DNA of 19,240 bases. It comes from Deferribacterales bacterium. GTDB lineage: Bacteria; Chrysiogenota; Deferribacteres; Deferribacterales; Geovibrionaceae. The notes under the pieces are model-generated. The model saw only the letters and a program-made list of their open reading frames with translations. It had not been told where the DNA came from and ran no database searches. Positions within the stretch are counted from its first letter, which is position 1. Each line of letters begins with the position of its first letter. Location: positions 1-19,240 of the forward strand of contig JBFWJG010000044.1 in NCBI GenBank assembly GCA_050253335.1, written 5' to 3'. Position numbers and translations under genes: made by a program. This document shows positions 1-13,648 of this stretch, piece after piece.

Positions 1-357
1 GTGTTTGAGGAGAGAGTGGCATTTAATGTTCTTCTCGGCAGTGATGAACCCTCAAACATAATGAGCGGCTACAAAAAAAGGCTTGAGGAAACCACAGGGA
101 TGAACCTTAACTTCAGAATTATCCCTGTCTCCACTGTTTTTCTTGCGGATTTCTTCCTCGGGGACGATGTTGTTTTTTCGGAGGAGGGCGGAATGTTTTA
201 CGAATTCACCGCGTCCACCCTTGAAGAAGCAATGGAGAATGACGGCATAGGGGTTATAAAGCATCCGTCCGGCGGCATGATAAGCTTCACGGGCGATTAT
301 ATAAAAGTTCTGACAGGGCAGGTAACTGCGCATCTGAAGGAACTGACAGGAGAATAG
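1..357 (+). CDS. Hypothetical protein, probably 5'-truncated by the window edge
   Basis: Frame open from base 1 to TAG at 355-357. Stop lies 1 nt before the iscS-like ATG, whose SD (ACAGGAG) is inside this ORF, so it is probably operonic. No family recognised. Confidence 0.7.
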   Translation: MFEERVAFNVLLGSDEPSNIMSGYKKRLEETTGMNLNFRIIPVSTVFLADFFLGDDVVFSEEGGMFYEFTASTLEEAMENDGIGVIKHPSGGMISFTGDYIKVLTGQVTAHLKELTGE

Positions 358-358
358 A

Positions 359-1540
359 ATGGCTTTTTTAGACAATGTTGCGGGAACAAAGCCCGACAGC
401 AGAGTGGTTGATAAAATGCTTCCGTTCCTTACGGAGCATTACGGCAACCCCAGTGCGCATTTCTACCCCCTCGGCAGAGAGTCTTTCGAGGCTGTGCAGG
501 AAGCGAGAAAGCAGGTTGCGGTGCTTATAGGGGCGGAGGAAGAGGAAATAATCTTCACCTCATGCGGCACAGAATCCAACAACCTCGCGGTGAAAGGCGC
601 GCTCAAGCGTCAGGACGGAAAAAAGCACGTTATCATAAGCGAAATAGAGCACTTCTCAGTGCAGAACCCGCTTATATCCTTCATGAACGACGGTTATGAA
701 ATAACCAGACTGAGAGTTGCGGAAAACGGTCTCATAAACCTTGAAGACCTCAAAAAAGCGATCCGCCCCGATACGGCTCTTGTCTCTGTCATGCTGGGCA
801 ATCCGGAGATCGGCACTGTTCAGTTCAATGAGGAAATAGGCAGGATTTGTAAGGAAAAGGGCGTTGTATATCATATAGACGCCGTTGCAGGTGCAGGACA
901 TATTGAGATAGATGTAAACAAGCTTAATTGCGATCTCCTCTCTCTTGCGGCGCAGAATTTTTACGGTCCCAGAGGGGCGGCTGCCCTTTACATAAGAAAA
1001 GGAACAAAAGTCGCCTCGCTCATGCAGGGCGGGCATCAGGAGTTCGGCTACAGAAGCGGCTCTGAAAATGTTGCAGCCATTGTGGGCATGGGTGAAGCGG
1101 CGCGCATAGCCAGAGAGGAAATGCACATATACTCCGCTGAAATGAAAAGGCTCGGAGACAGGCTCTGGAAAGGGCTTGCGAATATGTTTGACTTTTTGCA
1201 TTTTACGGGGCATCCTGAACGCCGGCTTCCGGGGCATGTCAGCTTCTGGATTGAGTTTATCGAGGGTGAGTCGCTGCTTATGTGGCTTGCTCTTAAAGGA
1301 ATATACGCGGCGAGCGGCTCCGCCTGCTCGTCAAACATCCTTGCCGAAGACGAGGAAGACCTTCAGGCCTCTCCCGTTCTCACGGCGGTGGGAGTACCTA
1401 ACGATATTTGCGCCGGATCAATTACTTTCTCTCTTTCCCGTTATACAACTGACGAGGAAGTGGACAAAGTGCTTGAGGAACTGCCCGGTATCGTTAAAAG
1501 ACTTTGTGAAATGTCTCCCGCTTACAACAGAGGAAACTAG
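359..1540 (+). CDS. iscS: IscS/NifS-family (class V PLP fold) cysteine desulfurase homologue lacking the PLP-binding lysine
   Basis: Motifs YGNPS, FTSCGTESNN, EH, GGHQE..RSGSENV and SGSACSS; directly upstream of iscU. The canonical S(A/G)HK reads AAQN. Confidence 0.93.
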   Translation: MAFLDNVAGTKPDSRVVDKMLPFLTEHYGNPSAHFYPLGRESFEAVQEARKQVAVLIGAEEEEIIFTSCGTESNNLAVKGALKRQDGKKHVIISEIEHFSVQNPLISFMNDGYEITRLRVAENGLINLEDLKKAIRPDTALVSVMLGNPEIGTVQFNEEIGRICKEKGVVYHIDAVAGAGHIEIDVNKLNCDLLSLAAQNFYGPRGAAALYIRKGTKVASLMQGGHQEFGYRSGSENVAAIVGMGEAARIAREEMHIYSAEMKRLGDRLWKGLANMFDFLHFTGHPERRLPGHVSFWIEFIEGESLLMWLALKGIYAASGSACSSNILAEDEEDLQASPVLTAVGVPNDICAGSITFSLSRYTTDEEVDKVLEELPGIVKRLCEMSPAYNRGN

Positions 1541-1549
1541 GAGGTTACA

Positions 1550-1996
1550 ATGGCAAAAGGACCATACAGCGAAAAAGTGATGGATCACTTTATGAATCCC
1601 CGCAACATGGGTGAAATAGAGGGCGCAAACGCTGTCGGAGAAGTGGGAAACCCCGCCTGCGGCGACGTTATGAAAATTTTCCTCGACATAGATGACGCAG
1701 GAATAGTTAAAGACGTGAAATTCAAGACATTCGGCTGCGGAGCGGCTATCGCCTCCAGCTCAATGGCTACTGAACTTATAAAAGGCAAAAAAGTTGAGGA
1801 GATACTCGCACTGACAAATCAGGCGATTGTGGATGCACTCGGCGGTCTTCCCCCCGCGAAGATTCACTGCTCTGTAATGGCTGAGGAAGCCATAGAGGAA
1901 GCACTGAAAGACTTCTACATCAGAAAAGGCGAAGACCCCGCAAAAGTACAGAAAATGAAAGAAGAAATAAAAAGCGCTGCGGCCGGAGGAAACTAA
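1550..1996 (+). CDS. iscU: IscU/NifU-N Fe-S scaffold protein
   Basis: YSEKVMDHF, GNPACGD, FGCGAAIASSS, KIHCS: three Cys plus Asp and His conserved. SD GGAGG upstream. Confidence 0.96.
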   Translation: MAKGPYSEKVMDHFMNPRNMGEIEGANAVGEVGNPACGDVMKIFLDIDDAGIVKDVKFKTFGCGAAIASSSMATELIKGKKVEEILALTNQAIVDALGGLPPAKIHCSVMAEEAIEEALKDFYIRKGEDPAKVQKMKEEIKSAAAGGN

Positions 1997-2223
1997 TGAG
2001 CTTAAAAGAAAGAGTTGAAGCAGTCCTTGAGCAGGTAAGACCCGCTCTTCAGGCGGACGGAGGCGATATTGAGCTTCTGGGAGTTACAGAGGACGGCATA
2101 GTTAAGGTACAGCTTACAGGAGCATGCGGAAGCTGCCCCTTCAGCACCATGACGCTGAAACACGCAGTTGAAGGCAGACTGAAAGACCAGATACCCGAAG
2201 TTAAAGAAGTACAGTCATTCTGA
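1996..2223 (+). CDS. Stand-alone Nfu (NifU C-terminal) Fe-S carrier
   Basis: VRPALQADGGDIEL and GACGSC (CxxC). Start overlaps the iscU stop (TAATG). Confidence 0.93.
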   Translation: MSLKERVEAVLEQVRPALQADGGDIELLGVTEDGIVKVQLTGACGSCPFSTMTLKHAVEGRLKDQIPEVKEVQSF

Positions 2224-2234
2224 AAACATATCGG

Positions 2235-2263
2235 AAGGTGCGGAGTATTTTCTCCGCACCTTT
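2235..2263 (+). terminator. Hairpin / probable intrinsic terminator of the isc operon
   Basis: AAGGTGCGGAG-tatttt-CTCCGCACCTT, an 11-bp stem just after the nfu stop. The U-tract is short. Confidence 0.7.
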
Positions 2264-2376
2264 CAAGTATCTCCCCTCCCTGGTTTCTTCCGCTTGGCCG
2301 CTCTTAAAATAATGCTTTTTTCCCTGTCATAATTGTTTTATAATCTTATCTTTAATAACCGGTCGGGATAGTGGTG

Positions 2377-11621: not shown

Positions 11622-13499
11622 CTACATCTGCATTGCAATATCTTTAAGCAGATCGCGGAGAATTACTCCGTCGGGAGATTTCGGCAGTGTCCTTGTGAAT
11701 CTTATTTCACTGGGCAGAGCGATTTCTCCTATTTCTTCAATAATCCGCTCTCTCAATTCCCTGACGGTGGTGTCGTGATAGCTTTCATCTATCTCTTTTT
11801 TCAGAACGCTGAACGCAATAAGGGCATCCCCGCGCTTTTCGTCGGGAATGCTTACCACTGCACAGTCTTCAACGTTGTCGTGTGTTTTTATAGCTTCTTC
11901 AATTTCAATCAAACTGAGCCTTTTGCCGCCCAGATGGAGAACATCGTCCATCCTGCCTTTAAGGATAAGATAGCCTTCGGAGTTGATTTCGGCCGAGTCC
12001 CCTGTTTTGAAGAATACATTATTATTATAAGATTTCCAGTAAATTTTTTTATAAGTGTCATAGGAATTGTTTATGGTTCTGCAGAGTGAAGGCATGGGCT
12101 TGTCCAGAACCAGCGCTCCTTGAGTCCCCGGTTCGGGGAGAATCTCGCCGCTGGCGTTGTTTATTATCTTCACGGAAACGCCGGGGAGAGGTTTGGAAAC
12201 GGTGCCCGGTCTGCATTCTTCATAGCCCGGCACAGCGGACGCGATGGCGCCTCCGGTCTCTGTAATGGAGTATATGTCGAAAAGAGCGGCGTTATAATTG
12301 CCCAGCGCCTTTGCCGTCCACTCTCTGATATCGTCTGTCATCTTTTCGCCCCCTGTGGCTATCAACTCAAGGGTGTCCAGCTTCATGTACTTCTTCTTTT
12401 TTTGCGCTGCGTTCATAAGGGATTTCAATATCGACGGTCTTGTATACAGTTTATTGACGCAGAATTTATCGCATATGTCGTAAAACCTGTGGGCGTTGTC
12501 CATGTCTATGGTGTCTTCAAACACAAGCACGGTCTCCCCCGCCATGAGCGGGCCGTACACAAGGTACGAGTGTCCGGTTATCCACGCTATGTCCGCTGTG
12601 CACCAGAATGTGTCCGTGTCGCGGGCGTCAAACATCAGCAGATAGGAAAAGTAAGCCCACAGAAGATAGCCGGCGGTGTGGAAAACAAGCGCTTTGGGAT
12701 CCTTCATGTTTGTTGAGGTATAAAGCATGAACATGGGATCTTCGGCGCGGGCATATTCCTGCCCTATATTTTTTGCCATGGAGTAGTGCTCATCGCTTAT
12801 GAGATCATGAAACCAAATGTCGCGCAAAGGCTTCATATGAACCCGCTTTGACACTCGCTCCACCACTATGCAGTACTGCGGCTGGTGGTCGGATATTATC
12901 AGAGCATTGTCCAGCTTGTTTTTCAGGTTCTGATTGGCTGTTACGGTTCCGTCCGCAGTGATGATTATTTTCGGGCGGCAGTCGTTAATTCTGTCCGCCA
13001 GAGAGTCGGTTGAGTAGCTTGTGTGGTAAACAATGTGCACCGCGCCCAGCTTCACGCAGGCAAGCATGGCAATGATCAGTTCGGGGATGTTGGGCAGATG
13101 GAGAAGAACCTTGTCCCCTTTTTTGAGTCCCAGTTTTTTAAGGGCGGAGGAGCATTTTATCACTTCAGAGTATAAGGACTGATATGTGTAAACCATCTGG
13201 GAGTGGTCGGCGCCTTTCCATATGATCGCCGCCTTGTTCTTCTTCGTTGTTGTCAGGTGCTTGCCCAGAACATTTTCCAGAGGGCAGAGCGTTCCGTTCT
13301 CGTAATATCTCGGAGTGAGCTTCTCACCCCAGTAAAGCGATGTATATTCCTTTTCCCAAACGAGATATTTTTTAGCCAGATAATCATGAAGCTGTTCATA
13401 GTCCCCGCTTAGGGAGCGTATTTTGTCCAGCTCCGCTTTGCTGAGGCTGTGCCTCTGGAAATTTCTGCAGTTTTCGGCCAGTCTTGAATAAATGGACAT
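11622..13499 (-). CDS. Acetyl-CoA synthetase-like protein with degenerate catalytic motifs (candidate pseudoenzyme)
   Basis: Acs signatures FWCTADIAWITGHSYLVYGPL, TETGG, TGD, GRMDDV. P-loop reads YTSTNMKDPKA and A10 reads LPKSPDGVILR. Start ATG 13499 follows GAGGTGGAG. Confidence 0.88.
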   Translation of the reverse strand: MSIYSRLAENCRNFQRHSLSKAELDKIRSLSGDYEQLHDYLAKKYLVWEKEYTSLYWGEKLTPRYYENGTLCPLENVLGKHLTTTKKNKAAIIWKGADHSQMVYTYQSLYSEVIKCSSALKKLGLKKGDKVLLHLPNIPELIIAMLACVKLGAVHIVYHTSYSTDSLADRINDCRPKIIITADGTVTANQNLKNKLDNALIISDHQPQYCIVVERVSKRVHMKPLRDIWFHDLISDEHYSMAKNIGQEYARAEDPMFMLYTSTNMKDPKALVFHTAGYLLWAYFSYLLMFDARDTDTFWCTADIAWITGHSYLVYGPLMAGETVLVFEDTIDMDNAHRFYDICDKFCVNKLYTRPSILKSLMNAAQKKKKYMKLDTLELIATGGEKMTDDIREWTAKALGNYNAALFDIYSITETGGAIASAVPGYEECRPGTVSKPLPGVSVKIINNASGEILPEPGTQGALVLDKPMPSLCRTINNSYDTYKKIYWKSYNNNVFFKTGDSAEINSEGYLILKGRMDDVLHLGGKRLSLIEIEEAIKTHDNVEDCAVVSIPDEKRGDALIAFSVLKKEIDESYHDTTVRELRERIIEEIGEIALPSEIRFTRTLPKSPDGVILRDLLKDIAMQM

Positions 13500-13648
13500 G
13501 CTCCACCTCGGTGATCTTGAAAAATAACACGTTTGTTTAAAAATGTACAATGGCAAAATATATATTTATTATGCTAATAGGCGCTTTCTGAATAAAAAGC
13601 TCATATATATGTTTTAAGATATTCTCTGATAATTCCTGTGTTCTGTTT

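Follow-up and report, generated by a model that had tools for sequence, protein, structure and literature searches.

A lysine-less IscS homologue, predicted not to act as a cysteine desulfurase, is paired with the only IscU found in a Deferribacterales genome

Closest described systems and the present locus

In active type I cysteine desulfurases a lysine forms the internal aldimine with pyridoxal phosphate (PLP), and the loop cysteine of E. coli IscS is Cys328 (PMC8918507). The principle of an IscS that lacks this lysine and stands beside IscU is already known. IscS of A. fulgidus has been reported to be inactive and PMP-bound, and to provide a Cys ligand to the [2Fe-2S] cluster of IscU, with sulfide as the hypothesised donor (PMC8918507, PMC7585200). 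IscS1 of M. acetivorans (MA0808) also lacks the catalytic lysine and is paired with IscU1, with an active IscS elsewhere in the genome (PMC7585200). In the literature searched, from which subscription papers and supplements (notably that of Garcia 2022) lay outside the scope, no lysine-less IscS from Deferribacterota or with an acidic loop was described.

We analysed a 19,240-nucleotide stretch of a Deferribacterales genome (the window), in which positions 359..1540 encode a lysine-less IscS, labelled here iscS* (gene) and IscS* (protein). Compared with A. fulgidus IscS2 (PDB 4EB5, 4EB7 and 4HVK; D199K variant 4R5F), IscS* has lost the same Lys, His, Gln and Arg, keeps the stacking His, the Asp and the loop Cys, has the same fold (TM 0.92) and has an IscU partner. 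The sequence-only reading had called the protein Archaeoglobus-type and had named similar segments in the archaeal IscS. This likeness is real, as 4eb5 reads HMSV, HIDATA, SSNDIYGPKG, RSGSEN, TGSAC and GTLLL; the name holds in part, in that the four catalytic losses are shared, but at the lysine site IscS* has Asn and A. fulgidus Asp, and IscS* differs further in a Pro at the second Asn of NNEIG and in a seven-residue acidic insertion and Cys351, both of which are absent from 4eb5. With about 41% identity, IscS* is no closer to A. fulgidus IscS than to human NFS1. We retain 'Archaeoglobus-type' for a functional likeness, since by analogy IscS* may function like A. fulgidus IscS. The genomes differ as well: that of A. 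fulgidus has SmsCB in addition (PMC12192291), and searches of the present one found no SufB/D.

M. acetivorans IscS1, likened here by its published description, belongs to one of three iscSU sets with patchy proteome detection (PMC7585200), whereas iscS* accompanies the sole scaffold. The MIS system (MisS-MisU) shares the two-gene core of an IscS-like and an IscU-like protein, and no HscB, CyaY or A-type carrier was found in the present genome, but MIS was defined with a working cysteine desulfurase (PMC13066941); IscS* is predicted to be dead, and Nfu follows iscU. On gene content, iscS*-iscU would fit MIS apart from the predicted-dead enzyme. With E. coli IscS and clostridial-type NifS, IscS* shares the type I fold, the GSAC loop, the IscU-facing helix and the C-terminal SP motif, but it lacks their active-site Lys, His, Gln, Asn and Arg and falls below the curated cut-offs.

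The features of the locus are as follows.

1..357, + strand: 3' end of a conserved upstream gene, which runs off the contig edge on its 5' side and measures about 270 aa in relatives; no Pfam family.
359..1540, + strand: lysine-less IscS, predicted pseudo-desulfurase of 393 aa with type I fold; full-length ORF, class V PLP family.
650..652, + strand: His98, the cofactor-stacking His, retained (120/120 top homologues).
803..805, + strand: Pro149, replacing the second Asn of NNEIG (P in 107 and S in 13 of 120 top homologues; Asn in 39/39 intact paralogues).
878..889, + strand: DAVA, with Asp174 retained and Ala177 (887-889) for Gln (homologue alignment, codon check).
953..958, + strand: Gln199 (953-955) and Asn200 (956-958) for His-Lys; the Schiff-base lysine is gone (120/120 top homologues, 39/39 orthologues).
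1325..1327, + strand: Cys323, the mobile-loop cysteine, invariant in 121/121 proteins; pLDDT <50 for residues 323-330.
1334..1354, + strand: seven-residue insertion giving the acidic loop CSSNILAEDEEDL, a subfamily signature by loop-length comparison.
1403..1411, + strand: Asp349 (E. coli Glu347 position; 120/120) and a second invariant cysteine, Cys351 (120/121, and 119/119 sisters).
1424..1426, + strand: Thr356, replacing the carboxylate-binding Arg (T 87, G 28, M 3, A 1, gap 1 of 120).
1550..1996, + strand: IscU/NifU-N scaffold with intact CGD, GCG, LPPAK and HCS motifs; TIGR03419 over cut-off; no other PF01592 gene was found in the genome.
1996..2223, + strand: stand-alone Nfu (CxxC) cluster carrier, assigned from sequence.
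2233..2264, + strand: 13-bp hairpin after nfu, a likely terminator (-24.7 kcal/mol, z -7.2; 0/200 shuffles fold as well).

Protein and gene neighbourhood

The translation of 359..1540 reads DAVA, AAQNFYGPRG, SGSAC and SITFS, and alignment to the solved desulfurase 9wep and to human NFS1 motifs places the substitutions at the DAxQ, HK and IRF positions. The codons confirm what had been read from the letters: the PLP lysine, the preceding His, the DAxQ Gln and the substrate Arg are missing (Asn200, Gln199, Ala177 and Thr356), and the stacking His (His98) and the SGSAC cysteine (Cys323) are kept in an ORF of full length. We take the E. coli IscS counterparts of the lost residues to be K206, Q183 and R354, and the second Asn of NNEIG, at the Pro149 site, is presumably a substrate/PLP contact. 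Comparison with the intact paralogues of the same genome revealed further departures, namely Ala197 (Ser in the paralogue), Ala352 (His in the paralogue) and Phe99, and the N-terminal DxxATT motif is remodelled to DNVAGT. Retained residues include Thr71 and Ser235 besides His98, Asp174 and Cys323. No compensating lysine, a possible objection named in the sequence-only reading, was found among the active-site motifs by alignment; the near-invariant K11 and K79 fall where intact desulfurases often have Lys too.

The class V PLP fold and the mobile GSAC cysteine loop are present, and IscS* scores under every NCBIfam NifS/IscS cut-off, including TIGR03402 (clostridial-type NifS; 440.5 vs 530.75) and TIGR02006 (E. 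coli IscS; 350.5 vs 643.2). The AlphaFold2 model (pLDDT 92.6, with low confidence, <50, at residues 323-330) is about equally close to human NFS1, E. coli IscS and A. fulgidus IscS (TM 0.92-0.94; 4eb7 and 1p3w both TM 0.92). With the Schiff-base lysine and the substrate arginine lost, IscS* is predicted, by analogy with A. fulgidus IscS, to have no cysteine desulfurase activity. The best PDB matches (9wep, 9wew, 9wer, 9wfe and others) form a variant series of one lysine-bearing desulfurase, and one of these variants carries changes at exactly the Gln and Arg sites whose residues IscS* naturally lacks.

The gene order is a birA-, coaX- and rodZ-like run, an orphan gene resembling semialdehyde dehydrogenase (Asd), iscS*, iscU, nfu and the hairpin; the names of the first three genes come from inspection of sequence clusters, with no family scan. 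The likeness of the gene at 1..357 to a divergent Asd fold is based on language-model features (score 0.94; a further copy lies at L058:5212-6027), and this gene is possibly a second degenerate enzyme. It abuts iscS* in most Deferribacterales loci, at about 270 aa, and was not seen among the subfamily loci outside Deferribacterales. A consensus terminator scan did not pick up the hairpin at 2233..2264, and the promoter scan gave no useful information, with 5 matches against 2.2 expected. The genes are spanned by RNA-library contigs from a single compost study, but contigs cannot show transcription. Elsewhere in the window, an acetyl-CoA synthetase-like ORF (11622-13556, - strand) adjoins a CBS/nucleotidyltransferase gene and an ActP-like permease. 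Its ATP-binding loop reads YTSTNMKDPKA, and the usual loop of acetyl-CoA synthetases is YTSG(S/T)TGxPKG; judged from this motif, the ORF may be another dead enzyme.

Conservation, subfamily and distribution

The substitutions are common to the relatives. Gln199 and Asn200 were found in 120/120 top database homologues, which are of Deferribacterales type, all with Cys323 and none (0/120) with Arg at position 356, and in 39/39 orthologues from 41 related genomes. Across the phylum, 60 of 68 genomes have an orthologue at ≥55% identity; the residues were read in 43 of these 60, and two have TN instead of QN. Of the eight genomes without iscS*, three are incomplete and gave no match, two belong to genus g12, and three belong to the most distant family, where IscU adjoins an ordinary-scoring IscS (intact in the one that was read). 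Named hosts are Geovibrio thiophilus (93%), Deferribacter, Calditerrivibrio (including Calditerrivibrio nitroreducens), Seleniivibrio, Denitrovibrio and the mouse-gut Mucispirillum. The dN/dS of iscS* against three genomes of the same genus was 0.059, 0.062 and 0.065, and that of the intact paralogue 0.055, 0.038 and 0.064 (Nei-Gojobori; a fourth genome pair was saturated); over 741 genome pairs, mean pairwise identity was 0.68 for iscS* vs 0.67 for the intact paralogue.

The sequence-only reading had asked whether the substitutions are shared by orthologues or whether close relatives have HK; they have QN. A sequencing error or a decaying pseudogene has practically no chance of explaining the gene, because QN stands in 120/120 homologues, the dN/dS of about 0.06 is similar to that of the intact paralogue, and an orthologue is present in 60/68 genomes. 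The shared substitutions and the purifying selection support the earlier non-desulfurase reading, with loss of activity itself predicted from sequence. The database label 'cysteine desulfurase' on the named IscS* members is a probable misannotation.

Two traits set these proteins apart. From Cys323 to Ser338 the loop has 16 residues in 121/121 Deferribacterales-type proteins (3-6 acids) and in 119/119 sister proteins (3-5 acids), but nine in 125/128 Lys-bearing representatives and in 119/119 Archaeoglobus-like proteins; the latter also have ND or NE at the lysine site. Cys351 is present in 120/121 Deferribacterales-type proteins and 119/119 sisters, and Ala occupies this position in 119/119 Archaeoglobus-like proteins. 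The acidic insertion and Cys351 thus define, at the sequence level, a subfamily. Sister lineages hold HN, QT, HH, TN, ND and others at the His-Lys site.

A GTDB scan with two subfamily patterns yielded 202 confirmed stretches, including Deferribacterota, Zixibacteria and Deferrimicrobiaceae. Most of the best 80 of these 202 belong to Zixibacteria, Ignavibacteria-labelled MAGs, Deferrimicrobiaceae and other Deltaproteobacteria. The insertion is present in all 80; 76 are without the Lys, and in the other four the pattern did not decide the residue. A same-strand iscU lies no more than 5 kb away in 70 of the 80. In at least five subfamily loci whose flanks are complete (L121, L122, L134, L140 and L147), no iscU is nearby. 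The broad lysine-less alignment gave no conserved pattern in the locus search, and the distribution given here is that of the narrower subfamily alignment, with the wider lysine-less clade outside that scan. Among the 150 best 50%-cluster representatives, 22 are without the Lys, so that bacterial lysine-less IscS is not rare in sequence collections. In Deferrimicrobiaceae-type loci, ORFs of about 65 aa that are ferritin-like (E...EXXH) flank iscS*-iscU (L152:4780-7310, L160:4769-6853 and L120:4711-6811); cysS, nfu and a gene for a small ferredoxin are close by.

In a quick tree with the trait columns dropped, IscS* fell in a 22-row, mostly lysine-less clade (support 97), and the 11 rows of the Archaeoglobus-like clade (96) grouped separately. 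A single clade with the Archaeoglobus-like proteins was nevertheless not rejected by the AU test (p = 0.369; 45 of 75 rows, trait columns dropped, proxy sequences); in the trees, P0126 and its relatives (E 1.9e-128 to 4eb5) represented the A. fulgidus sequence. Three free trees with separate clades suggest an origin of IscS* that may be independent of the A. fulgidus protein.

Sulfur supply, rival readings and significance

Among the 41 related genomes, IscU lies directly 3' of iscS* in 38 of 39 carriers, the remaining one ending at a contig edge. A single full-length PF01592 gene is present in 40/41, and no second full-length IscU was found in the iscS* carriers of this set. SufB/D, not found in the present genome, occurs in 2/41 relatives (L045, L046; G020, G027); each has one copy, possibly SmsB, and also keeps the dead IscS-IscU pair. 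Searches of the 99.9%-complete genome gave no family match for CyaY, TusA, HscB or an A-type carrier (PF07743, PF01491 and PF01521 among the profiles). The genome has nifHDKENX over the cut-offs, in a complete cluster with draG upstream (L231:6459-14518; G000:C33), and no further NifS or NifU for it was found anywhere in the genome; nifH exceeds its family cut-off in 24/41 related genomes. Both g12 genomes, of 78 and 88% completeness, lack iscS* and have an intact HK NifS with a different IscU adjacent, and this NifS groups apart from the other paralogues. In genus g12 (L056, L057; G026, G039), an intact NifS-IscU pair of another lineage seems to have replaced the dead one, as expected if the iscS*-iscU pair is one functional unit.

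The sequence-only reading had left open whether the genome has a canonical IscS or SufS, and had proposed cluster assembly from sulfide or another donor with IscS as scaffold partner or sulfur relay. Two intact IscS genes were found, in the contexts cysE-rrf2-iscS and rrf2/iscS-mnmA. The former operon (L002:1495-3713; G000:C5) contains no iscU and is conserved across the order. Its Rrf2, upstream of the main paralogue, has a C-x5-C-x5-C motif, which we take to be an IscR-like pattern, and this hints at Fe-S-linked control. The second intact IscS (L003:398-3202; G000:C13) lies by a second mnmA with a divergent rrf2 and has no C-terminal SP motif; an extra mnmA copy occurs in 9/41 genomes. The notion that no other desulfurase exists, which would force sulfide as the donor, is ruled out by these two genes. 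The main intact paralogue has HK/Q/R/C in 39/39 carriers among the relatives, and two small genomes of 1.3 Mb, considered to have dead IscS alone, each proved to have an intact one too. G096, a genome 73% complete, was the one exception, with no close IscS paralogue found.

Outside the order, genomes were searched for 50 of the 80 subfamily loci, and all 50 carriers have a second IscS-like match that scores higher against the intact query. The 30 such paralogues fetched all have HK/Q/R/C, and they lie by mnmA in 27/30 and by iscU in 0/30 (within 1.5 kb); SufB/D is present in 24/50 of these carriers. Free sulfide is thus no forced donor, because an intact IscS is present in nearly every carrier examined, and no reasonably complete genome examined forces sulfide use.

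Glu347 of E. coli IscS contacts IscU (PMC2854127, which also names Glu309-Ala316 and Arg379-Lys391). The IscU-facing EGESLL, D349 and MSP are conserved in IscS*, and most residues of this face, including the EGE/EAE and MSPL IscU-binding motifs, are retained in the main paralogue too (mean conservation 0.86 vs 0.89 for IscS*). The Glu347 position is Asp in 120/120 of the IscS* family and Val or Ile in 39/39 intact paralogues; it is Asp or Glu in 114/119 sister proteins and 76/127 ordinary representatives.

We tentatively favour, at a little short of an even chance, a reading in which the dead IscS docks the sole IscU and lends Cys323 as a temporary ligand during sulfide-fed assembly. IscS* would be the dedicated docking partner of the only IscU through its conserved C-terminal face, and Cys323 would ligate the cluster temporarily while IscU builds it; loss of activity, IscU binding and Cys ligation are all carried over from A. 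fulgidus IscS by analogy. By the same analogy, PLP or PMP could be held non-covalently via His98, Asp174, Thr71 and Ser235. Sulfide or sulfane sulfur as the donor is a guess, as are a part for the acidic loop and Cys351 in holding Fe or a nascent cluster and a main role of the intact paralogues in MnmA/tRNA and cofactor thiolation. This docking reading is preferred because the four losses are those of A. fulgidus IscS, reported to be an inactive Cys ligand; because of the iscS*-iscU-nfu order, the single IscU, the lack of any SufB/D found and the retained IscU-facing residues; and because the intact outside paralogues adjoin mnmA and not iscU. Sulfide can feed IscU without IscS in anaerobic E. 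coli (PMC13015791), and several relatives reduce sulfur to sulfide, C. nitroreducens being reported unable to do so (PMC11896075). That this species carries iscS* weakens the sulfide-fed part. The docking reading is weakened further by the intact IscS in 39/39 relatives and 50/50 outside carriers, by the IscU face that the paralogue keeps, by the full-flank loci without iscU, by SufB/D in nearly half of the outside carriers and by the hint of Fe-S-linked control of the main paralogue; the Glu347 argument, too, concerns one residue, acidic in just 76/127 ordinary representatives.

The chief competing explanation, which we regard as somewhat unlikely, keeps cysteine as the source: the IscS of the cysE-rrf2-iscS operon would pass persulfide to Cys323/Cys351 of IscS*, free or in a mixed dimer with the intact IscS, and from there to IscU. 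Such a relay would make sense of finding, in nearly all carriers examined, an intact IscS that has no iscU of its own, and of its IscR-like upstream regulator; the orphan paralogues of Deferribacterales and those of the sampled outside carriers cluster in the tree (support 82), the acidic loop, being long and flexible, could reach a partner, and organisms that do not reduce sulfur carry iscS*. However, an intact IscS is required for tRNA thiolation anyway, so that its co-occurrence is expected under any model, and 27 of the 30 outside paralogues lie by mnmA. Moreover, iscS* and intact iscS were never adjacent in the 100 loci examined (a double match in L124 is a split gene), and we know of no precedent for IscS-to-IscS transfer, which also counts against a relay. 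The kept EGE/EAE and MSPL motifs of the intact paralogue, and its position after an IscR-like gene, could instead mean that this paralogue itself docks IscU and supplies sulfur, with IscS* stabilising IscU or its cluster or competing for it. We consider this quite improbable: the paralogue has Val or Ile at the Glu347 position; iscU-nfu is coupled to the dead gene and not to the paralogue; and a pure holdase would not obviously need an invariant Cys323 loop.

A lysine-independent PLP/PMP reaction on a substrate other than free L-cysteine, with Gln-Asn as a rebuilt site, is less probable still. Across 121 proteins, Q199, N200, H98, D174, T71 and H34-F35-Y36 show little or no variation, a constancy beyond what pure loss would give, and what PMP and PLP do in A. 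fulgidus IscS has been called an open question (PMC8918507). The site is variable in the sister lineages, though, and residue 356 is T, G, M or A, which looks like loss followed by structural constraint.

The purpose of the inactive A. fulgidus IscS and the sulfur source of its IscU were listed as open in a 2022 review (PMC8918507), and the physiology of that organism cannot settle the sulfur-source question, because it also has SmsCB. A dead IscS beside the only scaffold found, in cultured genera, makes the question directly testable by complementation and reconstitution. To the known principle, the present analysis adds near order-wide fixation, a sole scaffold with no SUF or SMS found, nitrogenase, the acidic loop with its second Cys, and cultured hosts. 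A bolder reading, which we hold to be unlikely, is that a sulfide-fed system with a two-cysteine acidic arm, of separate origin from that of Archaeoglobus, is the sole Fe-S route in nearly the whole of Deferribacterales, including the nitrogen fixers of the order. The Cys323/Cys351 loop would then catch iron and sulfide and load IscU without cysteine, PLP chemistry, frataxin or ferredoxin, and many 'cysteine desulfurase' genes in the MIS operons of anaerobes would be non-enzymes.
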